Of a DNA stretch of 35,627 bases, positions 3,334-31,684 are shown in pieces. How positions within the stretch are numbered: the first letter of the stretch is position 1; each line of letters opens with the position of its first letter. Source of the stretch: a virus (lineage: Duplodnaviria; Caudoviricetes); the IMG/VR virus record IMGVR_UViG_3300036987_000044, positions 1 to 35,627 of that record; one strand, given 5' to 3'. The notes under the pieces were generated by a model. The model was not told where the DNA came from and did no database searches. It saw only the letters and a list, made by a program, of their open reading frames with translations. The position numbers and the translations under genes are program-made.

Positions 3334-4082
3334 CTGCTCCCCTCCGCGTCAACCGTTAAAGTATCATAATAATTAGCATTACTGTAAGGGAGGCTTCCTA
3401 CATAACTTAATTTCATTCGGCAAAAGAAAACATCAGCGGCGTTTGTTAAATCTACAGCGTAAAAAAATGGTTTTAAGAACTTAGCATGATTGTGCCAAAA
3501 TGGGTTCCAATTAGTAGAAGCCCATGTTTTATCCACATCTTGAAAAGTATGATTAAATGATACCGGATTATAACGGTAAATAACTCCTAAAAGATTTCCC
3601 GTTTTACTTACAAAGTTTTCGGCTTCAATCCCCTCTTCATAATTTGAAAGAGGTCCATTAGGAGGATATGTAAAAGCGATAGCTGTTCCAAAGTATAAAA
3701 CACCAATGTAAGGTTCCCCGCTTGCGTTTACTATTTTAATTCGCCAATACTGTTTACTTACCGCGGTAAAGGAAAACATAATTGCGTTATTGTGTGTAGG
3801 TGTTACGGTTGCGGCTTCAGTCCAAGTTGAATTATCCGGGCTATGCTCAACACTTACAACACATCCTACACTAGATAAGTTATGCCCGCATAAAGCAACT
3901 TCGCTAATTGAAGTAGCTCCGCTAAAAGCTCCCTTAATAAAATTAGTACCGGCGGCATTTGCTTTCCAGAATGTATAATTTCTCATATCTAGAACACTGG
4001 TTACATCGTAACCCGCATAAGTGCCGGAGGCTGTAACAGTTGCGTCTAGTAATTTATTATACCACAATAATCTAGGTGTCAA
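3330..4082 (-). CDS. Distal tail protein-like
   Basis: 250 aa directly after tape measure; discoidin-like segment (SPDNSTWT...QYWRIKI). Confidence 0.6.
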   Translation of the reverse strand: MTPRLLWYNKLLDATVTASGTYAGYDVTSVLDMRNYTFWKANAAGTNFIKGAFSGATSISEVALCGHNLSSVGCVVSVEHSPDNSTWTEAATVTPTHNNAIMFSFTAVSKQYWRIKIVNASGEPYIGVLYFGTAIAFTYPPNGPLSNYEEGIEAENFVSKTGNLLGVIYRYNPVSFNHTFQDVDKTWASTNWNPFWHNHAKFLKPFFYAVDLTNAADVFFCRMKLSYVGSLPYSNANYYDTLTVDAEGSR

Positions 4083-6019: not shown

Positions 6020-6668
6020 TGAGTGATCTCTGCTTTTAGTTGGCTAACATATTGCCATTGTTCAAGTGTTATGCTGTTAGGTTTAAGAGGATATCCGGCA
6101 TTTTGTAAATCAATTATGAACATCGCAAAAAGGAAGCGCGCGTCATAAACATATTCTTGTTTATCTCTTTCGTATGTTTCCCAAATTGCTTTAGCTTCAG
6201 CTTCAGAGGAATGTCTAGCTTTGCACTCCTCCCATGTTTCCGGGTAACTGCTAGAGAGATAGTTTTTTAATTCACTACGAAAGGGCGGGGTTCTTCCTTT
6301 ATAACAAAAGAACTTTCGCCAAAAATTGTTTTAATAACATTCATCAAAATATCGGAAGCGGTTTCTTTTAGAATACCAAACCACCCCGGATAATAATCAG
6401 AGTCATTTTTATCTGAAGAGATTTCTTTACCTTCAACAGTAAAATCACCTTTCCTAAAACCAGTAATAAACTTTTCAGCCCATGAAAGTTGAAGGTTAAT
6501 AACTTCTTCAAAACTATTTTTCTTGGTTAAGATATTAAGAGCGGCACTTTGATAGAGGATTCTATCTTGTGTAGTTGGTGTTTTGTAGTATAATTTGATT
6601 TTAGTACCGCTTAAAGAATCGAACAAAGTAATTTCGTTTTGTTCGGAGTATTTGAGTTCGCGTGGCAT
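5998..6668 (-). CDS. Tail assembly chaperone long form (gpGT-like, -1 frameshift, ~223 aa)
   Basis: In-frame slippery heptamer C CCT TTC at 6285-6279; the -1 frame is open for 93 further codons to TAA at 6000-5998, filling the gap to tape measure. Confidence 0.8.
6267..6668 (-). CDS. Tail assembly chaperone short form (gpG-like)
   Basis: 133 aa between tail tube and tape measure; GGAG RBS. Confidence 0.8.
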   Translation of the reverse strand: MPRELKYSEQNEITLFDSLSGTKIKLYYKTPTTQDRILYQSAALNILTKKNSFEEVINLQLSWAEKFITGFRKGDFTVEGKEISSDKNDSDYYPGWFGILKETASDILMNVIKTIFGESSFVIKEEPRPFVVN

Positions 6669-6676
6669 ACATTCTC

Positions 6677-7630
6677 CTATTTGAAAACAATTATTAAATC
6701 AGTGTTACCGGTTGCCATACTTGGCCTATATTGACCGGTTAAATCCCATGTAGCTATTCCATCACGTTCACCGGCTTTAGGCGCGTCCAGTGTAACCTTT
6801 GCGCTAGTAAGTTCAATTAAATTACCGGCGGTGTAAGTTGGTTTAGTTTCAATAGCTATTTCTGTTTGAGCTTGATGCAAAGTATAAGGGTTCAAGTTTG
6901 CGAGTGTATCTTGTTCGGGGTCAAAAGTATATTTTGTTTTTCTTTGAGAAATATAATATCTCGAAATTCCATAAGGTCCATTCGGGTCCGGTCGTTTTTT
7001 AGTTTCAAGACCTAAGTCAATTTCATACTTGCTAACTGTTGGTGTGTATTCGGTACCGGGGTTTATTTTGAAGTTAGCAATTTGCCATACTTGAAGAGCT
7101 GAAGTTTCGAAAGTTGGTGAAGGGAAAGTTACATCTTCAATAGCACCGCCATAAATTCCTATAATATCCATTTCAATGTAATTTAATTCACCGGCTTGTA
7201 ATGGAATCTTAAAAGCGGCGGCAACACATCCGAGTAGTTTATGTCTTTTGCCGTTATCCCAAAAATAAGCGGTAGCGGTTTCAGTATCGTATGAGGAGTG
7301 AGGAGTATAAGTAACACTAACACCGGCGCTAATTGTTTGAGTAAAACCCGCAATACGTAAAGGTACACCGCAACGTGGAGCAGTGCCCGCGGTTCCGCTT
7401 GCCTTAAATGGAATTTTAAGCCCACTAAGTTTATAAGCTTCACCAATTATTAAGGGAGCGCTTTCGCCAAAATGCCCTAATGGAATAGGTCTAGTTTTAG
7501 CTTGTGTAACCATTTCGAATGATGGAGTATCATGTAATTCCAGAGCATCATCAGCGGCGGCCGGAGTAGGATCCGTATTTAGCTGAGATTCAATTTTTAA
7601 GAATACTGTATGCCTAACTTTTATTGCCAT
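6677..7630 (-). CDS. Major tail tube protein
   Basis: 317 aa, beta-rich; KIES...DPTP N-terminus, SGTAGTAP motif; position before the chaperone; strong AGGAGG RBS. Confidence 0.85.
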   Translation of the reverse strand: MAIKVRHTVFLKIESQLNTDPTPAAADDALELHDTPSFEMVTQAKTRPIPLGHFGESAPLIIGEAYKLSGLKIPFKASGTAGTAPRCGVPLRIAGFTQTISAGVSVTYTPHSSYDTETATAYFWDNGKRHKLLGCVAAAFKIPLQAGELNYIEMDIIGIYGGAIEDVTFPSPTFETSALQVWQIANFKINPGTEYTPTVSKYEIDLGLETKKRPDPNGPYGISRYYISQRKTKYTFDPEQDTLANLNPYTLHQAQTEIAIETKPTYTAGNLIELTSAKVTLDAPKAGERDGIATWDLTGQYRPSMATGNTDLIIVFK

Positions 7631-7802
7631 GATCGACCTCCTTTTCTTTTAATTCTTTTTCAATTTTTTTTTCGCGCGCTTTCATAGCGGGGTCGTTTAA
7701 GTCCGGCACAATATCTTTACCTTTAATAATGTAGGCTCCCGGTTTACCAACGACTTGCACATCGGGTCTTGACACTGTTATGTTATCCATCATGTACTCC
7801 AT
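7614..7802 (-). CDS. Small hypothetical tail-region protein
   Basis: 62-aa ORF overlapping both neighbours. Confidence 0.6.
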   Translation of the reverse strand: MEYMMDNITVSRPDVQVVGKPGAYIIKGKDIVPDLNDPAMKAREKKIEKELKEKEVDHGNKS

Positions 7803-8224
7803 ATATTTTTCTTGTAAAAAACTTCTATATTAATTCGCCGTGTGGCAATTAAATTTCCTTGTTGATCTGTAACATCGCTTTCGGTATTAATGTACTCGCT
7901 ATTGATTGCAAGTCCGCTGAATGTATGATTAGAGCCTATGAGTTTTAGAATATCACTTACAACTAAACCTACATTCTTGGTTTTATTTTTATCCATTATG
8001 TCAATGATAATAGGAGTTTTGCAATACTCTAAAGTTTCAGATGAATCTTTGAACAGCTTTATCTCTTCTCCTTTTGTGATATTAATACCTTCATCAATTG
8101 GAGCGGCTGAATTTGTATAGACTTTTGTGTAAGTATAATTATACTCACTTGTGTCACTTATAGCTTTAATTTGATCTTTGAGAGAGTCGCTTAAGTTATC
8201 CGATATGTTTATAGGTTTACTCAT
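7790..8224 (-). CDS. Tail terminator (gpU-like)
   Basis: 144 aa; position before tail tube; C-terminal TFSGLA...IEVFY pattern. Confidence 0.6.
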   Translation of the reverse strand: MSKPINISDNLSDSLKDQIKAISDTSEYNYTYTKVYTNSAAPIDEGINITKGEEIKLFKDSSETLEYCKTPIIIDIMDKNKTKNVGLVVSDILKLIGSNHTFSGLAINSEYINTESDVTDQQGNLIATRRINIEVFYKKNIWST

Positions 8225-8531
8225 TTGCTGAAACTCTGCTAAGGTTTACGGTCGCGAACCCTTCCACATTTTGCGGAGGTTCTAACACATAAAATATTTC
8301 ATTTGAATATTTTCTTTTTACAGTACAATTCTGAGTTAAACTAGATACTATTGAATAAGGGAATTCAACACTTGGATTATTATTTATAACAGTAACTCCA
8401 TTAATTTCAGTTGGTGTATTTTCGGAATTCCAAATACCCATAACACTTTTTTTAGAGCCGTTTGAAAATGTAACCTCAAACGGCTCTGCAAAATCGAATT
8501 CATTAAAAAACACATCAACTTCTTGAATCAT
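8217..8531 (-). CDS. Head-tail joining protein (gpFII-like)
   Basis: 104 aa; FFNEFDFAE...GI pattern and position. Confidence 0.65.
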   Translation of the reverse strand: MIQEVDVFFNEFDFAEPFEVTFSNGSKKSVMGIWNSENTPTEINGVTVINNNPSVEFPYSIVSSLTQNCTVKRKYSNEIFYVLEPPQNVEGFATVNLSRVSANE

Positions 8532-9016
8532 TAGTTTTCATCTCGCTTAATAAAATAGATGCCTAAATCAAGTCTGGTTACGCGTCTGCCGGTTGCTAAG
8601 TTTGCAAGCTTAAATTTTACGTAAGGCGCTTTAACTGTAAACCTTAAACTAACGGCTCCGAATACTGAGGTAGTATCTTTTGTAAGTAAGCTATCATTAC
8701 CAAGTATCCAGTTTCCGTTAACTGTAGGATCACCATAACAAACGAAATAATCGAGCTTTAATTTAGGATTGCCCGCGGCTGTAGTAGCTTTACCGCCAAT
8801 GTAAACCCCGTCTGTAGTCCACGCGTAATTATCATAATTGGTGAGGTCGAGAGCTTGGCTGTAAATTGTTTCAACCGAATCTACAGTTATGGCATTCCAT
8901 CTAAGAGCAAGGCCATTCTCCCGCGCGTAAGCGGAAAGATTATCGGTTGTAGTTTGCGCCACTAATGGCAATGTAATAATCACCATCAGCGCTAAGATTG
9001 AGAATAATTTTTTCAA
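8531..9016 (-). CDS. Signal-peptide-bearing beta-rich protein in the head operon
   Basis: TTG start after AAGGAG; MKKLFSILALMVIITLPLVA-Q is a Sec-type signal peptide. Confidence 0.75.
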   Translation of the reverse strand: MKKLFSILALMVIITLPLVAQTTTDNLSAYARENGLALRWNAITVDSVETIYSQALDLTNYDNYAWTTDGVYIGGKATTAAGNPKLKLDYFVCYGDPTVNGNWILGNDSLLTKDTTSVFGAVSLRFTVKAPYVKFKLANLATGRRVTRLDLGIYFIKRDEN

Positions 9017-9071
9017 GGTAGTATCTCCTTATTTTTATTATGAATTATTTTTTCAAAGCCAGCGGAAAGGA

Positions 9072-9374
9072 TTATTTCCCTTTCCCTTTTTCATTTAAAG
9101 ATTTTTCAGCTTCTTGTTTAGTAGCTTCACGCTGAAATTTTTCCTTCTGTTCGGTTTCATATTTTACAACAGCTTCAAAATCCTTTGGATATAAGATTTT
9201 ATTTTGGAAGTATAGATCTTTTTTAACACCGCCCTTTAATGAAACAGATTCATTTTTTTTGAACGCTCTAGCCGGTTTACCAGCAACAGCTATTCTGCAA
9301 GGTTTGAACACAATAAATTCTTCTTCTTCATTGATCTTATCTTGGTTCCAAGGTGTGATTTTAGGCTTTTCCAT
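9072..9374 (-). CDS. Hypothetical head-region protein
   Basis: 100-aa charged ORF immediately after the capsid gene. Confidence 0.65.
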   Translation of the reverse strand: MEKPKITPWNQDKINEEEEFIVFKPCRIAVAGKPARAFKKNESVSLKGGVKKDLYFQNKILYPKDFEAVVKYETEQKEKFQREATKQEAEKSLNEKGKGK

Positions 9375-9400
9375 TTGTATTATCTCGCGTTAGTTTTTAA

Positions 9401-9428
9401 TAAATAATTAAGCCGGATAAGCTCCGGC
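9401..9428 (-). terminator. Possible intrinsic terminator after the capsid gene
   Basis: GCCGGA-GCTTA-TCCGGC hairpin followed by TTAATTATTT (weak U tract). Confidence 0.45.
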
Positions 9429-9436
9429 GGGCTTTA

Positions 9437-11413
9437 TTATTCTTCCCAATCTGTAAGCGGAGCATCATCAGCAATAGCAAAGGATTCTGATGTTCTTAAA
9501 TAGAAATTGGCTAAACGGTGAAGTGAGAATTCAACCATCCAGTTAAGATGCTTTGGCTGATCTGCAACAATCAATTCTTCTACACCCCATAGCAGTGTGT
9601 AGAACTCCGGCCAGTTTCCGAAAATGTTAACAGCATCCGGTATTTGGTTACTTGAAATAGATGGATAGCCTTGAATTGTTCCAGTTTTATAATCGTAAAG
9701 TTTTTCAATACCGCTAGAATCAACCGGACTAATTTTAAGAAGGCTTTCAACATCAACACTATTCACCCATTTCATATTTTGTTTCATGCCATTAGCTTTT
9801 GCAACCATGCGAATGAAGTTTACAATTTTCTTTTGGTTAACTATACTCATAGAAGGTGCACTCATACCGCTCATATTTAACAAGCCGGTAGGTCTGCCGC
9901 TTAAACCAGTTCCATTAATACCTTCATAATCAAGCTTAACATTCTGTTGGCTGTAAAGCTCACGGATTAGAATTTGGTCTAAACCACCTAAACCTTTATT
10001 TGTACGAATGAACTGTTCGCGTCCTAATTCAGTTGCGGTTGAAATTCTTTTTGGAGATACTTCATCAGTATCAACTACCATATAAGATTTATCAACTGCA
10101 ATATTTTCGAGCGGAGTGTAAGAAGTTAAACTTGTAACAATCTTTGGAACAACTAAAGTACCATTCAAGCCAGTAATAATAGTTGAACCGGCTTCACCAA
10201 GAACAGTTTGATTTCTAAGTGTTTCTTTGAGTAGGTCCGGGCGGAATTCATCCGTTTCAAAATATCCACCTTCTGAAGGTGTGCCGATTGAGTGAGCTCG
10301 TTTTGTAAGACTATCTAAAGCTCTTTTCTGAAAATCAGCGGCAAGGAAAAATCCTTTTTCGCTTGCGGGCTGTCCGCTGTATTTAGAAATCTGATCGGAC
10401 ACTTCGAATTCTAAACCTTCTCTTTTTTCGCCGCGTAAAATTTTACCAATAGCGCGACTTGGTGAATATTGATCAGCTTCACTCTTTGAAAAATCCATGT
10501 GCGAAACTGGTTTACTTGCGTGCCCGCCGTTTCTTTGGACTTCATCGTAAAGAGATTTGAAGTATTCTCCAATGTTAACATCAGCACCGGATTTAATTCT
10601 CAAAATCGCTTCGTCGGCTTTGTGTTTGAACGCGCCGTCAAACATCGATTTTGATTTTTCGATTTCCAAACAAGCTTCTTCTCGAAGTTGTTCAGCAGTT
10701 TTTGTTGTTGGTTCGCTCATACCAGAGCCTCCTTTTGATTGGTTAATTGTGATTCTATCTTCTAAGCTTTTTTGATTATTAAGAATTGTATTTAGGATTT
10801 GTTGTAATTCGGGATCATTAGATTTAATACCGCTTTGCATAGCACGTTTAATTTTTGCGGCATCATCAGCACCAATAGCAACAAGGGAAACTTCTTTGCC
10901 TTTCCACCATAATCTAACCAGTAAAGGCATATCATCTTCATACTCGTTTTTATATTCAACACCGTCAATAATTACAGTTGCGTTTTTAGGTATCTCAACT
11001 GTTTTAGATGAATCGGTCATGTAACCAAGCGAAACAGAATCAATAGTTTTTTCTTTAATCTTCTCTTTTACTTTTGGCTCTGATTCACTTATAAAAATTT
11101 TACATAGAAGTTCGCTTTCGGATGTTCTCCAATTACTAGCGGAGCCAAGAATATGATTAACCGAATAGCGCATGTGGCTATCGAGAACGGGAGCTTTATC
11201 ATTATCGGGCAATACGCAATATCTCATAGGGAGAATTTCCCGGACCATTTCCCAACGTTCCCAATCTATAACAACAGCGGCTTTATCTGTAGTAGCTATA
11301 GTTTCAAAACTTTCACCTTCAGCGCTGTTTACAACTGCAACACGCGAACACATACCCCCAAAGTTGCGCGGGTTAAGTTTGTCGAGTTCTAAACCTTTAA
11401 TTTCTATTTCCAT
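9437..11413 (-). CDS. Fused prohead protease and HK97-fold major capsid protein
   Basis: N-terminal protease motifs LDSH, DSVSLGY, EVSLVAIGADD; C-terminal capsid motifs SEGGYF, INGTG...PTGLLN, IFGNW. Confidence 0.9.
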   Translation of the reverse strand: MEIEIKGLELDKLNPRNFGGMCSRVAVVNSAEGESFETIATTDKAAVVIDWERWEMVREILPMRYCVLPDNDKAPVLDSHMRYSVNHILGSASNWRTSESELLCKIFISESEPKVKEKIKEKTIDSVSLGYMTDSSKTVEIPKNATVIIDGVEYKNEYEDDMPLLVRLWWKGKEVSLVAIGADDAAKIKRAMQSGIKSNDPELQQILNTILNNQKSLEDRITINQSKGGSGMSEPTTKTAEQLREEACLEIEKSKSMFDGAFKHKADEAILRIKSGADVNIGEYFKSLYDEVQRNGGHASKPVSHMDFSKSEADQYSPSRAIGKILRGEKREGLEFEVSDQISKYSGQPASEKGFFLAADFQKRALDSLTKRAHSIGTPSEGGYFETDEFRPDLLKETLRNQTVLGEAGSTIITGLNGTLVVPKIVTSLTSYTPLENIAVDKSYMVVDTDEVSPKRISTATELGREQFIRTNKGLGGLDQILIRELYSQQNVKLDYEGINGTGLSGRPTGLLNMSGMSAPSMSIVNQKKIVNFIRMVAKANGMKQNMKWVNSVDVESLLKISPVDSSGIEKLYDYKTGTIQGYPSISSNQIPDAVNIFGNWPEFYTLLWGVEELIVADQPKHLNWMVEFSLHRLANFYLRTSESFAIADDAPLTDWEE

Positions 11414-11426
11414 AATGCACCTTTAA

Positions 11427-13091
11427 TTAATTCACATTTACTAATGCTTTTTTATTTTTAGGAAGCTCTTCTTCTTTTGGTATTGGAGCTACTTGTTTAT
11501 AATTACTACCGGGGAATGGGAGTCCGGCTTCTTCAAACAATCTTCTTTCATAAACCATACTTTCGATAAACGATTCAAGGCTCCATCCTCTTTCCGCTAG
11601 ATACTCCTCAACTAGTCCAGCACCTTGACTTATCATAAGTAAGAATGCTTCAGCTTCATCTTTTGGAGATACCCATTGCCATGCGCGACCTTGGAACCAA
11701 GGCTTATTGAATTTATCGAACTTGCTATAAGGCAAATTAATTGCGCCATTCATTAACGCGGCTGAAAGCCATTCGCTAAAATTCCAATTAAGAAACTGAT
11801 CTCTAAACCAAGTGTGAAGAGTTTTCCAAGTATCTCTTTCATCTAAAAGATTAGTACGACTTGAAGTGTAGTTTACATCGCTATAATCATTTGCGAGAGT
11901 TATAAACGCAATCCCTATACCGGTAGCTATACCACGTAAAGCCCACTTTTGAAATTCACCTTCTTTGCCGGAGGGAGATTTATAATCAGCTACAGTTGCT
12001 TCCATACCTTTAGGAACTATAACATCTTCACCCGGCATACTTGTTTGAATCAGTAAGGAAGGATCTTTAACACCATTAGAATCTTTTGGATTATAAGCGC
12101 CGCCTCCAATGTTAGCGGTGTTTAATTCATCACCTACAGCATTATCTTTATATTTATAAATCAACCCTTTATTTGCTGATACTCTAGCATCTACAAGAAT
12201 AGCCTCTTCATAACCACTTAACATTTTTAATCGAATCATTGAAGGAGCGAACCATGGTATTCCACGTACTTGCGAAGGATGTTCTTTAACAAATAAATGT
12301 TTTATTTGAACTTGGCCATACTTATCATAAATAGGGATTCTTTCATTATCTGAAGATGAGAACGAACTATAAAGCATGTTCTGATATGGATTAGATTTTC
12401 TTAACCAATAGGCAACGGGCTTTCTGTAAGGTGTGAGTTCTACTCCCATTATTACAATGTTGCCATTGCTTAGGGTTGTATTTTTTGTTTCATCTAAATA
12501 ATCGCATTCAATCAGCTGAAGAGTATAGCGGAATTTATTATCTACCGTTCGAATTGGTTTTACAAGTATTTCCCCATCTGTAGCAATTGTTTTTAATATA
12601 AGCCCGCATTGTTCGCGGAATGCAATGTCTTCAGTTATTGAATTATATTTAGGAAGTTGCCACTCTTCAAAAGCATCTTGAATTAAAGTATTGGCAAATT
12701 TATCATAACGGGGTATGTATTGTTTTTTATCGGCATCGAATGTTAATTCCATCGCTTTATTTCGGAGGGTAAATCCATCCGGCCCGATAACGTTTTTATC
12801 TAATGCCCTTAAATAACCTTTTGCCCAAGGATCGTTAATTGCAAAATCTCTACTTCTACCAACTAGGCGGCGTAAAGAAATTCTTTGCATACCGGAAATA
12901 GTTTCATAAACATTATTCCAATCGCTTGTAAGGTGTGAAGTTTGCGCACCGGCAAAAGACCTTTCGGAATTCAATTCTTTGTTAAGGTTTTGAACGGTGT
13001 CTTTAAGTTCATTTAATTGCGAAGTTGTTTCATCCAACTTTGTAATTGGAATAAACCCAAACATTTGCCCTATGAATTCAAGCGGTTTCAA
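11427..13091 (-). CDS. Lambda-family portal protein
   Basis: 554 aa; RSRD...NDPWAKG, GVELTPYRKPVAYW, QVRGIPW, DYSDVNYTSSR, WVSPKDE motifs. Confidence 0.95.
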   Translation of the reverse strand: MKPLEFIGQMFGFIPITKLDETTSQLNELKDTVQNLNKELNSERSFAGAQTSHLTSDWNNVYETISGMQRISLRRLVGRSRDFAINDPWAKGYLRALDKNVIGPDGFTLRNKAMELTFDADKKQYIPRYDKFANTLIQDAFEEWQLPKYNSITEDIAFREQCGLILKTIATDGEILVKPIRTVDNKFRYTLQLIECDYLDETKNTTLSNGNIVIMGVELTPYRKPVAYWLRKSNPYQNMLYSSFSSSDNERIPIYDKYGQVQIKHLFVKEHPSQVRGIPWFAPSMIRLKMLSGYEEAILVDARVSANKGLIYKYKDNAVGDELNTANIGGGAYNPKDSNGVKDPSLLIQTSMPGEDVIVPKGMEATVADYKSPSGKEGEFQKWALRGIATGIGIAFITLANDYSDVNYTSSRTNLLDERDTWKTLHTWFRDQFLNWNFSEWLSAALMNGAINLPYSKFDKFNKPWFQGRAWQWVSPKDEAEAFLLMISQGAGLVEEYLAERGWSLESFIESMVYERRLFEEAGLPFPGSNYKQVAPIPKEEELPKNKKALVNVN

Positions 13092-13597
13092 AATGAATTA
13101 ATCATCCTTGGTTGTTTATAATAACCTAGCTTTACATTGTACCGGTGTATAGCTTGTTCAATTTCGAGTAGTGTTTTGAAGGTTGTAGTTTTACCATTTA
13201 CGGAAATGTTCACATAATCGCGGGAGGCTATTTTAATTTTAGCATCCTTAAGCGCGTCTAGAATCTTTTGGTCTTCAGTTCTTACATCTTGCGGATTGTT
13301 TAACAGCGGTTTTATTTCGAGCGCGGTTTCAACAACTGCAACAGTTCCATCGGAATGAGTAAAAAGATATTGAGCTTGAAAACTTCCAAAACCTATTTGC
13401 TTGCTTAAATCGGCATCCACATCAAAATCGAAAGAATCGCCATCTTTAGTAGGAGTTATTTCATGAGGTGAATTAATACCATTGCGGAGATATAAAACGC
13501 AATCATTAACTGAGGCGGGATAATCTGTAAATGTATCAGTCCATTTCCATGTAGCGCCGCTGTATAATGTGAAATCTGAAATCATTTTATAGCCCAA
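13088..13597 (-). CDS. Head completion protein with gpW-like C-terminus (start may be ATG 13585)
   Basis: ISVNGKTTTFKTLLEIEQAI resembles gpW; directly before portal. Confidence 0.6.
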   Translation of the reverse strand: MGYKMISDFTLYSGATWKWTDTFTDYPASVNDCVLYLRNGINSPHEITPTKDGDSFDFDVDADLSKQIGFGSFQAQYLFTHSDGTVAVVETALEIKPLLNNPQDVRTEDQKILDALKDAKIKIASRDYVNISVNGKTTTFKTLLEIEQAIHRYNVKLGYYKQPRMINSF

Positions 13598-13674
13598 TAA
13601 GTTAATGGGATTATTGGTTTATACACCAATTGATTTTTTCTAAGGGCTATTTATTTAAATATTTAGTGATAAAA

Positions 13675-13700
13675 TATGTCAGAGTATGTCAGAGTATGAC
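13675..13700. repeat. 10-bp tandem repeat upstream of the head operon
   Basis: TATGTCAGAG TATGTCAGAG TATGAC in AT-rich intergenic DNA. Confidence 0.8.
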
Positions 13701-13742
13701 ATAAAAAGAGGGAGATAATGAGGGAGGTATTTATTCAGCGTT

Positions 13743-13949
13743 TCATTTTTCTTGATTGTTTTGTGAAACTTTTTCAACAACAATTCTAATCCTAACGTGA
13801 TCAGAGCGGAGGAGTTCTTGCATAGAACTAACAAAATTATCTTGTTCGATATTTGACAAAAAATCATTAATGTAGCGATTAGGCGCGCCAAGGGCACGGC
13901 TCATACTAAGCGCTTTTTCTTTATTTTCTTTCCAGAGTTCAATGTGCAT
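13743..13949 (-). CDS. Small hypothetical protein, possibly DNA-binding
   Basis: 68 aa; GAGG RBS inside the upstream gene end. Confidence 0.6.
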   Translation of the reverse strand: MHIELWKENKEKALSMSRALGAPNRYINDFLSNIEQDNFVSSMQELLRSDHVRIRIVVEKVSQNNQEK

Positions 13950-13951
13950 AC

Positions 13952-14134
13952 TTACCTCTTTATTATTTGTCTGATACGTTTTGTAATTGCTGTAGCTGTG
14001 ACAAGTTTATCATGTTTTTTATTGTTGTAAACAAGAATGAATCTGTTAGTGAGAGTAGGCACAAGTTCTATTTTGTGCCTAGCTCCATTTTTACCTTCCA
14101 AAGTTATTTTCCAAAATGTATCTTGTTTTAGCAT
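13952..14134 (-). CDS. Small basic hypothetical protein
   Basis: 60-aa ORF adjacent to the next gene. Confidence 0.55.
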   Translation of the reverse strand: MLKQDTFWKITLEGKNGARHKIELVPTLTNRFILVYNNKKHDKLVTATAITKRIRQIIKR

Positions 14135-14181
14135 AATGAGTTAAATCAATTCTCCGTGTAATGATTGCGGGTTATGTAGTA

Positions 14182-14210
14182 GTTCTCCGGTCGCAAGGCG
14201 ACCGGAGAAC
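14182..14210. repeat. Perfect 13-bp-stem hairpin bounded by GTT...AAC
   Basis: GTTCTCCGGTCGC-AAG-GCGACCGGAGAAC. Confidence 0.9.
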
Positions 14211-14254
14211 GGACTTGGCGATTATGAGATGAATCGTTACCGTCGCTTTGCGCC

Positions 14255-14519
14255 GGAGAACTAACGATTCATGTCCGATGCCTGTAGGGCTAACTAACAT
14301 GTATAGAAACATTATTAATAAGCCAGATTATCAATTCAACTATTTTCCATATCGCAAATGGGATTGCTACTATACAAATGATTAGCAATAACTTTAAGAG
14401 TGCTGTAATTCCATCACCTATTCCACTTACCATTTAAAACCTCCTTTAGCGTGTTAAATAAAAACCTATGTGTCGTCGTTAACCCTACGGGCACGGCATA
14501 ATCGCCAAGTCCGTTATAG
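14255..14519 (+). mobile_element. attC-like recombination site A
   Basis: R'' GGAGAAC, 5 nt, L'' ATTCATGT ... L' GCATAAT, CGCCAAGTCC, R' GTTATAG. The left arm has unpaired C, T and A; the inner stem is TGCCTGTAGGGCTAAC/GTTAACCCTACGGGCA. Confidence 0.6.
14290..14433 (-). CDS. 47-aa membrane peptide inside the loop of attC-like site A
   Basis: AAGGAGG RBS; MVSGIGDGITALLKLLLIICIVAIPFAIWKIVELIIWLINNVSIHVS; below the ORF-track cutoff. Confidence 0.75.
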   Translation of the reverse strand: MVSGIGDGITALLKLLLIICIVAIPFAIWKIVELIIWLINNVSIHVS

Positions 14520-14533
14520 CGATGCGGTTGCTC

Positions 14534-14911
14534 TCACAATAAACACTTAAAACCAGTATGCTTATCATAAACACTTTTTGTAACTGGTTCGCCCGCTACA
14601 TCGCCAAAAATAAAATACCGCTTTTTCTTACCGTCAATTATTATGTAATGCTCTTCCGCAACCGCACCGTTCGCAGTTTGTTTATCTTGTAGAGCTGGGC
14701 AATCTTTACAATCTTTTAGTGCTTCCTTATATCCGTCTCTAAATTGCTCACTCGCTATAACTACGCAATCAAGCGGAACACTTTCTTTAATTTTTAATTC
14801 AAGCTCTTCTATTATATTATCAATATCATATTTAGAATTGCCAGTGTTGTGTATTTTTATATCCTCACAAATACCTTTTGCATCTGACAATCCATCTTTA
14901 TAGTATTTCAT
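14534..14911 (-). CDS. Hypothetical protein spanning attC-like site B
   Basis: 125 aa; GAGG RBS; residues VPLDCVVIAS are encoded by the L''/R'' boxes. Confidence 0.7.
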   Translation of the reverse strand: MKYYKDGLSDAKGICEDIKIHNTGNSKYDIDNIIEELELKIKESVPLDCVVIASEQFRDGYKEALKDCKDCPALQDKQTANGAVAEEHYIIIDGKKKRYFIFGDVAGEPVTKSVYDKHTGFKCLL

Positions 14912-14973
14912 TTTATGCCTCTGTTAATTTTGATTGTTCTGTTCGTGTCCGCTTATTGCCAACTCTGTTATTT
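14755..14973 (+). mobile_element. attC-like recombination site B
   Basis: R'' CTATAAC, 5 nt, L'' AATCAAGC GGAACAC ... GTGTCC L' GCTTATT, GCCAACTCT, R' GTTATTT. Extra C and extra A in the left arm, as in classical attC. Confidence 0.7.
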
Positions 14974-15361
14974 CAGCTCGCATCCGCTCGCTGAAATAAC
15001 GGCTCGCTTCGCTCTCACCAAACAATTCATAATTCTTTTTTTTATCGCGTCTTGTTGCCGCTGAATTATTTTTATGCTGTTTGCTGTCATATCTCAAATG
15101 ACATCTTTGGCACATTGCTTTTAAGTTTTCCTTTCTGCAATCTGATTCATTATGGTTTAAGTGTGCAACTGTTAAGACTATTTTACCTTTCGCATATTGC
15201 GCCAGTTCACCGTGGCGCTCGATACATCTTCCAGTTGTAGAATGTAAACCACATTCTCCATTACATTCGCACCTACCTTTTGCCCGCTCAAATCTTATTT
15301 CGTTTGAAATCTCTTTCCAATTTTTAGGATACTTATTTTTATTTTCTTTTTTAATTGGCAT
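14924..15361 (-). CDS. HNH-like zinc-binding protein
   Basis: RAKGRCEC...VLTVAHLNH...NLKAMCQRCHLRYD. Confidence 0.8.
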   Translation of the reverse strand: MPIKKENKNKYPKNWKEISNEIRFERAKGRCECNGECGLHSTTGRCIERHGELAQYAKGKIVLTVAHLNHNESDCRKENLKAMCQRCHLRYDSKQHKNNSAATRRDKKKNYELFGESEASRYFSERMRAEITELAISGHEQNNQN

Positions 15362-15376
15362 CTAACAAAACCTCAT

Positions 15377-17317
15377 TTATCTTTTCCAATCGTTCACCCA
15401 ATTTTTATTATTAGTTTGTATCGGTTCTACTTTCGGTTGTTCAAATAATGAACCTTCTTTTAGTTGTTCACTTTTACGGATTAGATCTTCCATTATTTTA
15501 ATGAGGTTTGCTTTGCTAATTCTAAGCGCGGCAAGGTTTTCAACTTCAACATCGAGATCATGATTTTCGCGGCCGGGTATTGGTTCCCATGAAGTTACAT
15601 AAGCTCCCTTTACTAATTTCTTTACCGGCTTTTCAGCGGTTAAACATTGGAAGTATTCAAGATCAGCATAATGATTAAAGTGCATATAACCGGGGCCGGA
15701 TTGTTCTTTGTTCTCAATTTGCAAACGTCTGAAGATCACTTCTTTAGCTGTATCAGTTCCAACAAAGTAGAGGGGAATTCCACCTTTATTATTCATACTT
15801 GGTTTTATTGGAGCTATAGGTTTTCCATGTTCATTAGATCCTTTAGTTCCATAAATGCGCCGGTGTGCTTTATCCTTTACAAATTTATAAGCTTGATCAG
15901 CATGGTGACCTTGTGTATCAATTGCGGCGGCTGAAATTTTAAGTGAAACACCTAATGGATGCTGATAGCTTTTAGTTAATAGCAAAGCATCTAATTCATT
16001 CCAAATATAATCAAGCGCGGGATTGCCCGGTAAAAGAATTCTTTCGAGTAGCCAACTTTGTTCACCAATCCCCCATCCTTTAATTTTTACATGAAGCCAA
16101 CTATCTTGTGTATCAATACCGGCGGTAATGTAACATATTGCACCGGGGATGATAGGATTATCTTCATTAAAATAATTTTCTACACGGGTTAAAAGCTGTT
16201 CTTCTTTTGGCTGTCCGTAATTCGGTTTCCACAATTCAGCGAGTGATTGTGTAATAAATGTTTTTAAGCTAGAAGTTTCACCGGCTTTAGCTTGTTCATT
16301 TGCTTTTATAAACTCCTCTACCATTTTAGGCCATTCAATGGAAGTATAAAGTTTGTTTATATGGAATGTAGGTTTGTTCAATACTTCGGGTTTCTTTTTT
16401 TGCCACAATCCGTTTATCATCATATAATAATGTTGGTCCGGCTCCGGCAAAATCCTTTCAGTACAGTTTTCATTTTTGCATTTATAATACACTGTTTCGG
16501 GTTTATTCAATTCCCATTTTACACCAAAGTTTTCAGAAGGGCCTCCCCATTTTAACCTTTGTATAGTTCCGCAATGAGGGCACGGTACATAATAATATCT
16601 TTGATCTCCATCCTCAAAAACCACCCATATAATTGATTCACCTTCATTGCCCGGAGTTGAAGTTACAACAAGCTTTCTATTCGGGAATGTTTCTTGCATC
16701 TTGCGCGCGGTTTCAAAAGGATCACCCATAAAACCGGAGCGCTTCCATAAATCCACTTCATCAAAGTGAGCATATCTTTTTGAAGCGGATGTTAAATCTC
16801 CGCTAGAGTTTGCACCAACTAAATCGAGAATAACACCGTTAAACTTTTTCATTAAAACGGAATCTATCTTTTTACTTTTTGACGCGCGAACTTCTTCAGC
16901 TATTTTACTTAAGAATTCATTATCTCTAATTGAGGGATCTATTCTCTCGCGGCTGAAACGTCCGGCTTTCATTTTACTTTCACTAATATAAATTATAGGG
17001 CCGGGGTCTTCAGCTATTTCATTGCTGATTGCAATTTGTTGAATTAATGATTTACCCCATTGCCTATTTCCAACAATACCAATTATTTGATTTTGAGGAT
17101 TGCCAATTTCATCTAATATTTCTTTTTGGAATGGTCGAGTAGAATAGGAATATAAACCGCTTTCGTTTGAATATTCGGGAGATAAGTGAAAGTTATTTAT
17201 AGCCCATGTACTTAATGGGATTCTCTCTTTAGTTCTTAATCTTAAAAAAACATTTTCAAGTTTTAGATTAAGATAATTTAGAGCTCTCGGTGAACTTTGT
17301 AATTGTTGATATTCCAT
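15377..17317 (-). CDS. terL: Terminase large subunit (lambda gpA family)
   Basis: 646 aa; Walker A-like RQWGKS, Walker B FDEVD, STP, YYVPCPHCG, nuclease GIDTQ, ENHDLD. Confidence 0.95.
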   Translation of the reverse strand: MEYQQLQSSPRALNYLNLKLENVFLRLRTKERIPLSTWAINNFHLSPEYSNESGLYSYSTRPFQKEILDEIGNPQNQIIGIVGNRQWGKSLIQQIAISNEIAEDPGPIIYISESKMKAGRFSRERIDPSIRDNEFLSKIAEEVRASKSKKIDSVLMKKFNGVILDLVGANSSGDLTSASKRYAHFDEVDLWKRSGFMGDPFETARKMQETFPNRKLVVTSTPGNEGESIIWVVFEDGDQRYYYVPCPHCGTIQRLKWGGPSENFGVKWELNKPETVYYKCKNENCTERILPEPDQHYYMMINGLWQKKKPEVLNKPTFHINKLYTSIEWPKMVEEFIKANEQAKAGETSSLKTFITQSLAELWKPNYGQPKEEQLLTRVENYFNEDNPIIPGAICYITAGIDTQDSWLHVKIKGWGIGEQSWLLERILLPGNPALDYIWNELDALLLTKSYQHPLGVSLKISAAAIDTQGHHADQAYKFVKDKAHRRIYGTKGSNEHGKPIAPIKPSMNNKGGIPLYFVGTDTAKEVIFRRLQIENKEQSGPGYMHFNHYADLEYFQCLTAEKPVKKLVKGAYVTSWEPIPGRENHDLDVEVENLAALRISKANLIKIMEDLIRKSEQLKEGSLFEQPKVEPIQTNNKNWVNDWKR

Positions 17318-17807
17318 TGAATAATGTATTTATCTCTTTTTCAATTGCGGTTTCTAAATCAGTTTTATTTTTTGAAATCATAACCACCGGTAATAAATTC
17401 TTTTTGAATGTAGTTTTTTGCCGCGTTAATATTTCTACAAACCTTTCCATAATTTCAACTACATCATCTACAAAAATTAACTTTTCTTCTAACTGAGCAA
17501 GTTTTAACTCTTCCATTTTAGCTTGTGCCATTTCCTTTCTATTCTTTGCGGAATTTTCGGCACTGGTTTTACTCTCTTCAATTTGTTTTCTAAGATGCTT
17601 AAACATTGCTTCCAAACTAACACCGGCAACATACTTACCGCGCTCAATTCTTTTAATGCCATAGAAGTTTTCATCTTTAGGATCACTGCCACGTTCAATA
17701 CTTCTAGTAGTAACTCCGCATAAATCGCTAAGTAATTTACCGGAGAAAGTATAGCGTTCATTGAGATCTTGTATTGAAGTAACATGTATCTTTTTCTTTT
17801 TTGGCAT
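17268..17807 (-). CDS. terS: Terminase small subunit (Nu1-like)
   Basis: N-terminal HTH (LSDLCGVTTRSI) plus coiled coil (RKEMAQAKMEELKL); overlaps terL. Confidence 0.8.
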   Translation of the reverse strand: MPKKKKIHVTSIQDLNERYTFSGKLLSDLCGVTTRSIERGSDPKDENFYGIKRIERGKYVAGVSLEAMFKHLRKQIEESKTSAENSAKNRKEMAQAKMEELKLAQLEEKLIFVDDVVEIMERFVEILTRQKTTFKKNLLPVVMISKNKTDLETAIEKEINTLFNGISTITKFTESSKLS

Positions 17808-27222: not shown

Positions 27223-27632
27223 ATTGGAATTCCTAATGTTCTTTTTATCTGTTGAACTTGTTTCATGTTATTCTCTAATAGATCATCTAGCTTAATACCA
27301 ATTCTAAATTTTTCATTATCGGTAATTTTGCCATCTCTAATAGCTCTCATAACTTCAGAGCTAAAAAGGCTCATGTTATAATCGATAGTGCCCGATAATC
27401 CAATGGTAAGATTAGTGAGAAGTGATATTTCGTCCGGTGTGCCGCTTAAAATTCCTACTTCAACCAACAGCTTTTTAATCTTGAAATAATATTCATCATC
27501 AACATCTTTAGCGCCGTTCAGCTGATAGCTTAAAGTCTTTTCATTCAGTCCAACTTCGCTAGCAATCCAATTCTGTTTTAATTTGCGTTCGTTAAAAATC
27601 TTTTTTAGTTCAATTTGCCTTTCGCCGTCCAT
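27219..27632 (-). CDS. CII-like HTH regulator
   Basis: QNWIASEVGLNEKTLSYQLN HTH plus AIRDGKITDNE, reminiscent of phage 186 CII-type proteins. Confidence 0.65.
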   Translation of the reverse strand: MDGERQIELKKIFNERKLKQNWIASEVGLNEKTLSYQLNGAKDVDDEYYFKIKKLLVEVGILSGTPDEISLLTNLTIGLSGTIDYNMSLFSSEVMRAIRDGKITDNEKFRIGIKLDDLLENNMKQVQQIKRTLGIPI

Positions 27633-27806: not shown

Positions 27807-28022
27807 TTAACTAACCAACTCTTTAATACGTGCCAACATGCTAGGCGCTTTTCTATTGAAAGCCATTGAAATAAAAGATTCGGTTACATCAAACTTATCA
27901 GCCAAGTCTTTACGGTACTTTTTAATACCATACTTCTTAATGGCTTTTAGCTCAATATCTTCTGAGTTTAATTTTTTGCCGACTTGCGCCAGTTTTAGTT
28001 TTTGCGATAATGTTAATTGCAT
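27807..28022 (-). CDS. Cro-like HTH protein
   Basis: 71 aa; RKDLADKFDVTESFISMAF; divergent from the repressor. Confidence 0.65.
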   Translation of the reverse strand: MQLTLSQKLKLAQVGKKLNSEDIELKAIKKYGIKKYRKDLADKFDVTESFISMAFNRKAPSMLARIKELVS

Positions 28023-28586: not shown

Positions 28587-29024
28587 ATGAATAAAAAACT
28601 TGAAATAGGCGCTAAATTAAAAGAATTTGCCAAAAAAAAATTTGGTAGTATTGCCGCTTTAGAACGCGAATTAAACAAACCCGCCGCCTATTTTCAAAAT
28701 TATATCAATGGCCGGAGTTATTTAGGTGGCGATATTCTATGTCAATTGTCAGAATTAGGGTGTGATATAAATTGGCTGTTAACCGGAGAAAAAGGAGATA
28801 AACATATAATAAAAGAACCGGAGGGGCAATACAATATGGGTGAGTACACAAACCTTTTTGCGGAGGTACATGCACTTAGAGAAGAGATCAAAGAATATAA
28901 GATTATGATTTTTGACCTTCAGCGCGCAAATGAAAGACTTACAAAAGAGAATAAATCTCTTACCAAAACCAATACCGAATTAAAGAACGAACTAATCGAA
29001 ATTCAAAAACAACAAACAAATTGA
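28587..29024 (+). CDS. CI-like XRE repressor with coiled-coil C-terminus
   Basis: SIAALERELN...YINGRS...GCDINWLLTGE; no S24 peptidase domain visible. Confidence 0.8.
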   Translation: MNKKLEIGAKLKEFAKKKFGSIAALERELNKPAAYFQNYINGRSYLGGDILCQLSELGCDINWLLTGEKGDKHIIKEPEGQYNMGEYTNLFAEVHALREEIKEYKIMIFDLQRANERLTKENKSLTKTNTELKNELIEIQKQQTN

Positions 29025-29030
29025 GGGGTT

Positions 29031-29483
29031 ATGAAAACCTTATTAGCAATTAGCATTTTAGCTTTACTTACCTCATGTACAACTATGCAACCAATTACAA
29101 GTGAACAGAAACATCATGAAAGAGTTTTAACCCATGAACTAACAAAAGATCAAGCCTATGATGCCGCAATAGAATGGATTGCAAAAAAGTTTAATAGCGC
29201 AAATGACGCGGTTCAATTAAAAGATAAAGAGAATGGTAAAATTATTATTCAAGGTGTAGGCTCCTATTATTATGATGCTCTTCAATCTGTCCTACTAAAT
29301 TACAGATATACAATGACCGTGCGGGTTGCTGATAATAAAGTTAAATTCGAATTTGATACACTAAGCTTAACTAGCGGTAGAGATATTCAGCAAGGTGACG
29401 TTTATAAAATACAAGCTGATTATAATTTGATAATGGAAAACATGTTGCAATCATTTAAGAATTATAAGAATGATGGGTTTTGA
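29031..29483 (+). CDS. Lipoprotein (DUF4468-like), superinfection exclusion candidate
   Basis: LTS-C lipobox; WIAKKFNSA...QLKDKENGKIIIQG. Confidence 0.7.
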   Translation: MKTLLAISILALLTSCTTMQPITSEQKHHERVLTHELTKDQAYDAAIEWIAKKFNSANDAVQLKDKENGKIIIQGVGSYYYDALQSVLLNYRYTMTVRVADNKVKFEFDTLSLTSGRDIQQGDVYKIQADYNLIMENMLQSFKNYKNDGF

Positions 29484-29992
29484 TGAAACTTCGCAAAAGT
29501 ACACTACAAACAAAAGCGGCTCCGGCTTTCTATGAGAAAGTCGGGGTGTATATAGAACAATGGTTAAACAGTAACCATAAACTAAGACTTCGACCGGGTA
29601 CACAAAAAGAACTTTCGAGCGAATTAAAAAAATATGGAGTAGTCGCTACCCCTTCGCAACTCAGCCGCTACATAAATGGAATTAACGAAATGCCCGCGCG
29701 AGTTGTAAATGTTATAATAGATCAGCTAGGTTTTAAGGCACAAACCTTCTCAGATTATTACATAAAACAAAGGGAGAATATTAACCTAGAACTTCTCACA
29801 AAAGAAGATCTCTATAAACTGATAGCGGAGCAAACACTTATAATAAAAGAATGGAAGGATATCGCCAATAATTATAGCGGTAGAGTGCACAAGCTTTTAG
29901 ATGATAATGTAGCGTTAGTTAAAGCTATGCACAAAAGTATATCCGAAAATGAAGAAATGCGGAAAGAGATTAGAAGCTTAAAAAGAGATTAA
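29480..29992 (+). CDS. Second XRE-HTH plus coiled-coil protein
   Basis: TQKELSSEL...TPSQLSRYING..MP. Confidence 0.7.
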   Translation: MMKLRKSTLQTKAAPAFYEKVGVYIEQWLNSNHKLRLRPGTQKELSSELKKYGVVATPSQLSRYINGINEMPARVVNVIIDQLGFKAQTFSDYYIKQRENINLELLTKEDLYKLIAEQTLIIKEWKDIANNYSGRVHKLLDDNVALVKAMHKSISENEEMRKEIRSLKRD

Positions 29993-30099
29993 AAAAGCAG
30001 ATACGCAACCCCGCAACATTAACCACAATTCGCAATAATGCAAGTATCACGCTAACACCTTTCAAAAAAACAAAATACAATTTTCCAAAACCACCCATA

Positions 30100-30127
30100 A
30101 AAAGCAATAATATACATTATGTAATCA
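30100..30127 (-). other. dif-like (XerCD) site, candidate attP
   Basis: TGATTACATAA-TGTATA-TTATTGCTTTT; 15 contiguous nt identical to the E. coli dif core. Confidence 0.6.
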
Positions 30128-30303
30128 GTCTATCTAACTTTATCACTTAATCTATTTGGCATTAACAACTTATTTAATAATATTTTATGCAAGTTTAGTT
30201 ACCTGCTTTTAAATTGCCAAATACGCAATTTTTACGCAATAAATAATAATTGCAATCATGTACATCTTTTTCATATTTCTATACATGACCGGCTTATCAT
30301 GAA

Positions 30304-30660
30304 TCATTTTACTAAAAAAAGTATTGCAGTTACCACAATTACCGCCGCGGCAAAACCATAACCAAATTTATTATACCATGCGGGCTTAATGTCTAACTGT
30401 TCGCGGAGGTTTTCAATCATTCTATCTTTTAGTTCTATCAGAGTGTTTTTATCATCAATGCTCCGGTAAAGAATTCCAACTTCACTTATAAGTGAAGTAT
30501 TTACCTTTCTACATGATTCTAGCTCAATGCTAGTTTTGATGATGTGCTTAAACTCCGCTAAAGTTATTAAGACTTTACTGGAATCAATAGGATAGATTTG
30601 CGCGGTGTTTGTAGTATAAGCGAATAAGACTATCAACATTGTGAGTATTATTAACTTCAT
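30304..30660 (-). CDS. Spanin-like protein 2
   Basis: N-terminal hydrophobic signal, coiled coil and C-terminal TM; overlaps the upstream spanin-like gene. Confidence 0.55.
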   Translation of the reverse strand: MKLIILTMLIVLFAYTTNTAQIYPIDSSKVLITLAEFKHIIKTSIELESCRKVNTSLISEVGILYRSIDDKNTLIELKDRMIENLREQLDIKPAWYNKFGYGFAAAVIVVTAILFLVK

Positions 30661-30895
30661 TTTGAAGTTCCTTTTTTTCAATTATCCAATATTTAATTTC
30701 ATTCTGGTAAATCTTTACGCTATCTACCCGGCGGGCATCTCTCGCTTGAATGCTGTCAATTGCTAACTGAAGTTTTTCATTTTGTTTTTCGTACATCCGT
30801 TTTAAGTTACCTTCAGCGCTACAGCTTTTCATTTCGGAAATTACTAGTAAAGCTACAATGAATAAAAGAAGTCCAATCATTATTTTGTCTTTCAT
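30584..30895 (-). CDS. Spanin-like protein 1 (Rz-like)
   Basis: N-terminal TM plus coiled coil directly after the endolysin. Confidence 0.6.
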   Translation of the reverse strand: MKDKIMIGLLLFIVALLVISEMKSCSAEGNLKRMYEKQNEKLQLAIDSIQARDARRVDSVKIYQNEIKYWIIEKKELQNEVNNTHNVDSLIRLYYKHRANLSY

Positions 30896-31443
30896 AACAC
30901 ATCCACATGTAAACAGTTATTCTGTCGCTCCTCAACAAAACCTTTTATCATTGGAACCGCCCCGGCTTTTATAGCGGAGATTAGAGCTTGCTTTTCATCA
31001 GTAATAGAATTTGCGCCGCCGCCAATATCAAACGACTTTCCGGCAAAGTGTGGAGATGGATTAAATAAATCCCCTTTCCGGTCCTTTCCCGTTCTACCTA
31101 TGTATGATAAAAGTAACTTGGCTTGCAATGGAGGATTTATAATTACATTCGCGTTTAATAATTTGCTCCATGCTAACTGCCATGAGTAGATCTGTTCACC
31201 ATTATAAACGACTTTCGAATTCACATCATCATTTATAAATTCATCTTTGATGTTTTTTCTTGTAAGATAATCTTTGATTATTCTCAATTGATCATTCGCC
31301 GTTCTTATACCGGAGGTTACATAGGCAATTAGATTTACAGCTCTGAAATAAGGCTCCAGTTTATAAATAGCATCATCTAACTTTTCATTGAGAATAACAT
31401 TCTGTTTTACAATTAAATATTTATTTTGCTTCGATTTCATCAC
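30892..31443 (-). CDS. Endolysin, peptidase M15-like
   Basis: TSGIRT, SPHFAGKSFDI and CLHVD zinc-ligand motifs. Confidence 0.8.
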   Translation of the reverse strand: MMKSKQNKYLIVKQNVILNEKLDDAIYKLEPYFRAVNLIAYVTSGIRTANDQLRIIKDYLTRKNIKDEFINDDVNSKVVYNGEQIYSWQLAWSKLLNANVIINPPLQAKLLLSYIGRTGKDRKGDLFNPSPHFAGKSFDIGGGANSITDEKQALISAIKAGAVPMIKGFVEERQNNCLHVDVL

Positions 31444-31684
31444 TAGCCTCTTTCGGTTTTTTTATTGCCTCAACTACTTTAATACCAAACAAAAGATTTA
31501 AGCTACCCATTATTATTGCGGCGTAAGGTAGAATTAAATCTTTATAAGCGAATGTTACATACAAAAATGAAATAGTAATTGCGGGCACCCATTGAACAAT
31601 AGAATAAAAAACATTCACTCTAGATGAACTTGGCTCATTGTTTTTGCTTAATGCTTTTTTAAGGAATTCGTATAAGTCTTTCAT
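31421..31684 (-). CDS. Holin
   Basis: 87 aa, two TM segments, charged C-terminus, upstream of the endolysin. Confidence 0.7.
   Translation of the reverse strand: MKDLYEFLKKALSKNNEPSSSRVNVFYSIVQWVPAITISFLYVTFAYKDLILPYAAIIMGSLNLLFGIKVVEAIKKPKEASDEIEAK

Follow-up and report, generated by a model that had tools for sequence, protein, structure and literature searches.

Among the described systems nearest to the phage reported here is LME-1 of Legionella, a published temperate phage with a tail and a genome of about 30 kb, which inserts itself at dif by means of XerL (PMC9765430, PMC12407071). Like the phage that fills our window (the whole stretch of 35,627 nucleotides analysed), LME-1 is tailed, draws on a host Xer recombinase, as the window phage probably does, and has one intact and one modified dif, the modified one stabilising the prophage of LME-1. 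It differs in being T7-like and short-tailed, with the single recombinase XerL and a 22-bp att, whereas the window phage is lambda-like and long-tailed, has a dif of the classical XerC/XerD type and carries flanking motifs as well as a gene for a candidate activator; whether LME-1 has an activator is posed as a question in the work on it (PMC9765430, PMC12407071). Since LME-1 is published, a tailed IMEX (integrative mobile element exploiting Xer) is not new in kind, and an earlier sequence-only reading of the window, which had described elements exploiting host XerCD as mainly filamentous phages or satellites, somewhat overstated their rarity among tailed phages.

TLC-phi of Vibrio cholerae resembles the window in its strongly degenerate XerD arm, with 8 of 11 bases differing against 7 of 11 here, and in an XRE-HTH gene beside attP (PMC6744903, PMC9226527). 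The protein XafT combines an XRE HTH with DUF3653 (PMC6744903), and the XafT and XafV genes adjoin their attP sites (10.64898/2026.06.12.731946). Unlike the window phage, TLC-phi is a satellite; the second domain of XafT, DUF3653, is replaced here by a predicted long helix, and XafT works independently of sequence context, whereas the window attP has conserved flanking motifs. The gonococcal genetic island (GGI) is, like the window phage, a large element between an intact dif and a site altered in its outer XerD arm (PMC9226527, PMC6744903), but it is an island and not a phage, with four of six outer bases differing and no known activator. Among dif-type double jelly-roll prophages and inoviruses of Vibrio, integrase-types and dif-types coexist in one lineage and differ in their lysogeny module (PMC12715192). 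The window lineage shows the same split between sister clades, although the Vibrio elements, unlike it, are small non-tailed phages of Gammaproteobacteria.

In the window, and in a related prophage of the genome G446, the centre of the att site is identical to dif and the XerD arm is degenerate, as in TLC and GGI. The folded single strand with two inverted dif-like sites that marks CTX has no counterpart, the window being a dsDNA tailed phage with one site; nor does the VGJ overlap, which differs from dif and blocks XerD exchange, the centre here being identical to the host dif. Judged by sequence, the att geometry is TLC/GGI-like, not CTX- or VGJ-like, and the likeness to the degenerate TLC arm drawn in the earlier reading fits.

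The open-access literature yielded no long-tailed phage integrating through XerCD, with the proviso that the supplementary data of two sources (PMC6744903, 10.64898/2026.06.12.731946) may list tailed cases, and no case of an Ignavibacteria phage with classical XerCD. This case contributes all att forms together with a second, independent prophage that is whole, a sister clade of the integrase type, and a candidate factor with flanking sites that lacks DUF3653. A missing integrase is widely taken as a sign of a lytic or defective phage; in this case a lambda-like phage is integrated without a detectable one. The system also offers a handle on the integration and excision of elements that combine a degenerate XerD arm with the lack of a DUF3653 protein, such as GGI (and LME-1 for XerL), and the host recombinases, both att sites and the candidate factor are all testable in E. 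coli.

Phage genome and dif-like site

The window is a closed 35.6-kb phage genome, as had been stated earlier: its ends overlap by 39 bases, and it is rated 100% complete with direct terminal repeats. It contains 112 ORFs of at least 50 aa, 59 of which were scanned against PHROGs and Pfam, the remainder being mostly overlapping alternative frames. The features relevant to integration are as follows.

4079..17807, minus strand: lambda-like head and long-tail module (PHROGs and Pfam matches)
28587..29024, plus strand: CI-like repressor that heads the operon ending beside attP (PHROG repressor matches, E 2e-8; 39% identical homologue in G446)
29031..29483, plus strand: DUF4468 protein with a lipoprotein-like N terminus (Pfam and sequence features; no counterpart in the G446 prophage)
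29480..29992, plus strand: 170-aa protein with an XRE-like HTH and a long C-terminal helix, a predicted coiled coil (fold model; G446 homologue)
30004..30043, plus strand: four YGCAA motifs in the XerD-side flank (30004, 30012, 30031, 30039), candidate accessory-protein sites of putative function
30100..30127, minus strand: attP, a 28-mer dif mimic (sequence match, junctions, comparison with host dif)
30107..30123, minus strand: 17-bp core common to attP and the empty host site, with the crossover within it (contigs L002, X4 and X1, see below)
30188..30255, plus strand: four YGCAA motifs in the XerC-side flank (30188, 30224, 30235, 30251), of putative function
30304..31684, minus strand: lysis cassette with a holin-like gene, a likely M15-type endolysin and two spanin-like genes (sequence features)

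A gpA-type terminase, a lambda-family portal, a protease-capsid fusion, a tail tube and a tape measure (PHROGs, Pfam), with no sheath, point to a long-tailed lambda-like phage, its morphology being read from the genes. The plus-strand repressor operon spans 28587-29992. The CI label given earlier to its first gene stood, with no S24 peptidase found in the product (Pfam), whereas the Cro and CII labels rest on position, because the 'Cro' ORF (27807-28022) has no family match and the 'CII' ORF (27219-27632) has weak repressor matches. The lysis cassette ends at the XerC-side flank of attP; its labels are partly inferential, the endolysin call drawing on weak VanY/M15 leads and on an M15 peptidase at the same place in G446. 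Among the 59 scanned ORFs, PHROGs and Pfam gave no match to a recombinase, transposase or ParA family, nor to ParB, and six-frame searches of the window detected neither PF00589 (tyrosine recombinase) nor PF00239 (serine recombinase), in agreement with the earlier statement that no such gene is recognisable. Many ORFs of both the window phage and the G446 prophage have no assigned family.

Some further traits of the genome were recorded. Adjacent ORFs of 399 and 104 aa at 19010-20524 have a replication-initiator N-terminal domain in common, one such ORF being present in the relative, and two exact 20-bp repeats 33 bp apart at 19655-19707, within the replication gene, are iteron-like. An 841-aa helicase-methyltransferase fusion (20990-23515) has no match in the G446 prophage, which instead carries two separate methyltransferases and a ParB-domain gene. 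A 47-bp repeat (96%) at 81-127 and 35432-35478 falls within one tail-fibre-like gene, which crosses the join of the circle in a single frame of 416 codons.

The 28-mer had been noticed between the immunity and lysis operons, and it is present as written, on the minus strand of a 311-bp gap that separates the plus-strand operon 28587-29992 from the minus-strand lysis genes ending at 30304. It has the IMEX layout of two 11-bp arms around a 6-8 bp centre. With arms named after the layout of E. coli dif, it comprises a XerC-type arm (30127-30117), a central hexamer identical to that of the host dif (30116-30111) and a degenerate XerD-side arm (30110-30100), in which the seven differing bases are all outer ones; in G446, 6 of 11 differ. 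The reported run of 15 contiguous bases in common with the dif of E. coli K-12 was found again in NC_000913.3.

The 14-base core occurs once in the window and, with one mismatch allowed, was matched in 9 of 100 shuffles. A 21-base matrix (XerC arm, centre and inner four XerD bases), built from 20 dif sites of the host family over a span chosen after the site was seen, gave 27.0 bits, a score reached by none of 300 simulated genomes. The full 28-base matrix was not significant (score reached in 30 of 200 simulations), because the outer XerD arm is degenerate. The sequence-only reading had attached a somewhat raised risk of a chance match to the AT-rich context; it is the junctions, not the motif score, that settle the question of integration. 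Only one dif-like site is present, with no long hairpin around it (no shuffle control); a look-alike at 25675-25700 lies within an ORF and was rejected, no second site scoring above the null. Neither the exact attP 21-mer nor the degenerate-arm pattern was found in viral contigs, and the latter occurred in one of 166 family genomes, G446 alone.

Integration at the host dif site

The phage integrates at the dif of its host. Four att forms, namely the circle, the empty site and both junctions, were recovered from other assemblies, each switching inside the 17-bp core. Over 11.3 kb, the IMG/VR contig L002 follows the window at 99.96-100% identity; at 30107 it passes into non-phage DNA with a full XerD arm, GTAAACA standing in place of the phage outer XerD arm TGCTTTT, and contigs of run X4 continue along L002 across its junction. 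The evidence for the second junction is a 13-letter loose end: an X4 contig departs from the window at 30123, and its remaining 13 letters match those to the left of the core in the empty site. The empty site itself was found on a 1480-bp contig of run X1 that has only the 17-bp core in common with the phage, one side continuing like L002 and the other with the letters of the X4 loose end. The circle is represented by an unbroken attP spanned in three of four runs (X1, X2 and X3) and in X5. Runs X1-X3 are possibly the window's own source, while X4 is marked as a different study; the best-matching runs are groundwater and coal metagenomes. Contig depth in X1, which is not a copy number, was 39 for the phage and 6.2 for the empty host site. 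A search of metagenome contigs for the merged junction pattern gave four matches, all dif-like sites of other organisms and none matching the window.

Upon insertion, a full dif made of the phage XerC arm and the host XerD arm is rebuilt at one end; the site at the other end has a degenerate XerD arm. The host gene upstream retains its stop codon. The phage shows traits of an IMEX, being integrated at the host dif, which is rebuilt at one junction, with no recombinase of its own visible to the profiles used. Integration at host dif by a tailed phage had been the first of two alternatives in the sequence-only reading, and it is borne out by contigs that switch to host DNA within 30100-30127 (L002 and X4) and by the prophage in G446.

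The core joined to the host XerD arm matched eight GTDB contigs: three from Melioribacter/Melioribacteraceae, one from BRH_c32, a further one with the same flank and three of Bacillota type. The motif is present exactly once in 112 of 166 Melioribacteraceae genomes (control, 1 of 166) and lies at 0.43-0.55 of the rounded genome size from dnaA, about opposite it, in all five genomes picked for a long first contig. GC skew is +0.09 to the left and -0.13 to the right of the G446 insertion, changing sign across the prophage. The host target site is the single-copy dif of Melioribacteraceae. A 3-hydroxybutyryl-CoA dehydrogenase gene of the contig L089 overlaps with its end the XerC arm of dif (5001-5023); read by hand, the left flank and core of the X1 contig give KTGIGFYQYTT-stop against KTGEGFYKYST-stop in L089, which makes a Melioribacteraceae host probable. 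From the XerD arm and a 30-letter flank, the host is likely a bacterium of the Melioribacteraceae (Ignavibacteria); the host-specific flank had no match in GTDB contigs, and the exact host genome was not found. We take Ignavibacteria to belong to Bacteroidota. The 3-hydroxybutyryl-CoA dehydrogenase gene runs into dif in some Melioribacteraceae, its last codons and stop overlapping with the XerC arm, and four genomes have a second tyrosine recombinase gene at a distance of 4-7 kb from dif.

A profile of the ORF at 29480-29992 identified G446, one of the 166 family genomes. Its 101-kb contig C6 carries a 38.9-kb prophage between ftsY and the 3-hydroxybutyryl-CoA dehydrogenase gene, bounded by two dif hybrids; the earlier reading had suggested looking for related prophages flanked by dif. 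Its gene order agrees with that of the window, of whose 56 proteins 27 have matches in it at 29-68% identity. The left end joins the phage XerC arm to the host XerD arm, and the right end joins the host XerC arm to a degenerate arm ending in CTTTT, as in the window; the shared core is 15 bp against 17 bp in the window, both centred on the dif central hexamer. Neither PF00589 nor PF00239 was detected inside the prophage, and no recombinase among its 44 ORFs (Pfam). The host genome encodes XerD (C2:30566-31453, above cut-off), FtsK and a XerC-like protein (C6:72067-72960, best match XerC, below cut-off), the gene of the last lying 5.5 kb outside the prophage, and has 16 PF00589 matches in all. 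The window phage and this prophage are the only two with att context.

Two more dif-like sites occur in G446 (C151:308 and C6:84118), one of them on a 2.8-kb contig after a similar gene end; they may belong to a second strain or element. KOPS octamers of the E. coli type are absent from the window and number three in the G446 prophage (C6:27740-66590), all on the strand towards the rebuilt dif.

In the terminase tree, the window and G446 phages fall in one nine-row clade (100/99), and the sister clade includes two complete phages with integrases. Terminase relatives were found in 6 of 401 class genomes; each of the five checked has a tyrosine recombinase on the same stretch, and no dif core was found near them. 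The sequence-only reading had named as grounds for giving it up that relatives integrate elsewhere by an integrase lost from this genome, or that the 28-mer is not conserved; neither applies, for the closest relative with att context is integrase-free and has the same form of site, while more distant ones do carry integrases. That two phages whose proteins are about 30-70% identical agree in this form makes a recent integrase loss less likely. The clade is not uniform, however: another member is a partial contig (L009:1792-3337, G531; terminase 51%) with spanin and Cro-like genes, between which no att site, repressor, integrase or HTH-coiled-coil gene was found and four small same-strand ORFs lie; it is possibly a non-temperate derivative or a joined contig. 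Three other contigs of the clade do not reach the att region.

HTH-coiled-coil protein and flanking motifs

The gene beside attP ends 107 bp from it in the window and about 90 bp in G446. Its product was modelled as an HTH followed by a 62-residue helix (pLDDT 78.5, pTM 0.49). Foldseek gave no match at E 0.001 or better and XRE-type regulators at E 0.1 or worse; the HTH assignment draws on weak fold and feature matches, with Atlas neighbours that are unnamed or HTH_3 proteins. A homologue with 40% identity lies beside the same arm in G446, so that the gene adjoins the degenerate arm in both dif-type phages. The profile matched one of 207 loci and no other, integrase-bearing relatives included; it found one of 166 family genomes and one of 401 order genomes, and nothing in viral contigs, cultured phages or 401 class genomes. 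The protein database holds 12 homologues, and 25 were found at E<=0.001 among representatives, some of them long repeat proteins, all without genomic context. DUF3653 (PF12375) was absent from both genomes at E up to 1, and Pfam gave no match to it either. It agrees with XafT in being an XRE-type HTH protein encoded beside attP, but lacks DUF3653, and was not filed in that family. We read no relation to cer-type accessory proteins into a below-cut-off match to ArgR (E 7e-4). By analogy, we consider the protein a candidate Xer activator or synapse-building factor, a role to which we give not quite an even chance; with no DUF3653, it could be an ordinary regulator.

YGCAA occurs eight times on one strand of the 311-bp gap, against 0.94 expected and 0-2 in six other gaps. 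The G446 prophage has counterparts of the two inner copies on the XerD side, to within 1 bp, and of two copies on the XerC side, to within 2 bp; all four G446-flank copies thus lie at most 2 bp from a window copy relative to the core, an agreement reached in 80 of 100000 random placements. The motif has five bases and was picked after inspection in two phages, its enrichment in G446 being weak (P 0.01-0.05). The flanks of host dif sites hold 0-2 copies in 20 of 20 cases. The flanking motifs resemble the arm-type sites of integrases. As at plasmid Xer sites with accessory sequences (PMC6744903), proteins may bind here within about 200 bp of the core. Those plasmid sites, of the cer/psi type, serve multimer resolution with host accessory proteins, whereas the motifs in the window flank an integration site on both sides and the phage itself encodes the candidate protein.

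Candidate mechanism and alternative explanations

Given that the dif hexamer forms the middle of both shared cores and that the phages yielded no recombinase match, the crossover is very probably made by XerC and XerD of the host, which would catalyse the attP x dif exchange within the shared core. The degenerate XerD arm would then protect the prophage from excision by FtsK-driven dimer resolution, as reported for GGI and TLC. PMC9226527 reports that FtsK acts only on XerD arms close to the canonical sequence and that excision is limited where the arm is altered; a helper is therefore expected, and the candidate activator is invoked because an arm as degenerate as this one serves FtsK-dependent recombination poorly. 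Controlled through the repressor operon, the HTH-coiled-coil protein would bind the motifs, in one flank at about 74-82 bp and in the other at 74-110 bp, and would activate recombination or build the synapse. On this basis, we propose tentatively, and with more doubt than confidence, that a clade of long-tailed Ignavibacteria phages swapped its integrase for a three-part Xer-hijacking module. Its parts, proposed with the same reserve, would be a dif mimic with a crippled XerD arm, arm-type motifs in both flanks and an HTH-coiled-coil protein that binds them. If true, lambda-style regulated and directional integration and excision would be carried out by host recombinases, and there would be a family of Xer activators unrelated to DUF3653 that acts through DNA sites.

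A variant of this explanation, still with integration at dif, is that XerCD act through host FtsK or basal XerC activity and nothing more, the HTH protein and the motifs forming an unrelated transcriptional control unit. We regard it as quite possible, at somewhat under even chances: the fold matches XRE-type regulators (at E >=0.1), the Atlas neighbours are unnamed or HTH_3 proteins, DUF3653 is missing, and GGI has no XafT-like protein (PMC6744903). Against it, the gene lies beside the degenerate arm in two of two phages, with a profile matching no other of the 207 loci; motif positions agree in four of four cases (the 80 of 100000 placements above); and FtsK needs near-canonical XerD arms (PMC9226527), yet the arm here departs from dif at 7 of 11 bases.

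The insertions could also stem from a divergent recombinase that the phage itself encodes, or from an integrase that another element provides in trans; the likeness to dif would then be just that of a duplicated target. The 16 PF00589 matches in G446, the many phage ORFs without a family, the use of own integrases by related phages and the likeness of the motifs to arm-type sites would suit it. It is nevertheless improbable, given cores of 17 and 15 bp centred on the dif hexamer in the two phages, a full dif rebuilt and no recombinase match in the unassigned ORFs common to both. Resolution of plasmid-prophage dimers, offered earlier as an alternative use of the site, is not needed to explain the data. 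That the phage is mainly a plasmid prophage, integrating as an occasional by-product, is very unlikely: the circular form dominates the X1-X3 contigs, with the X1 depths of 39 and 6.2, and the G446 relative has a ParB-domain gene, but no ParA/ParB match was found in the window, integrated forms occur in L002, X4 and G446, and a degenerate XerD arm makes integration stable and does not favour resolution (PMC9226527). Least credible of all is a chance match in AT-rich DNA with junctions mis-assembled on a short repeat. The 28-base score within the null (30 of 200) and the presence of the 17-base core in 105 viral stretches would allow for it; four complementary junction forms came from different assemblies, however, and G446 refutes it, since a single 101-kb contig there spans both junctions and retains the native order of ftsY and hbd.

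Many of these 105 occurrences of the core fall within long ORFs. Among the 17 that were checked, four of five near-complete records with the dif core lack PF00589: L230, L183, L229 and L175 (G744, G745, G746 and G756), viral records rated 92-100% complete. In L230, L183 and L229, the dif site looks intergenic and has plausible arms.
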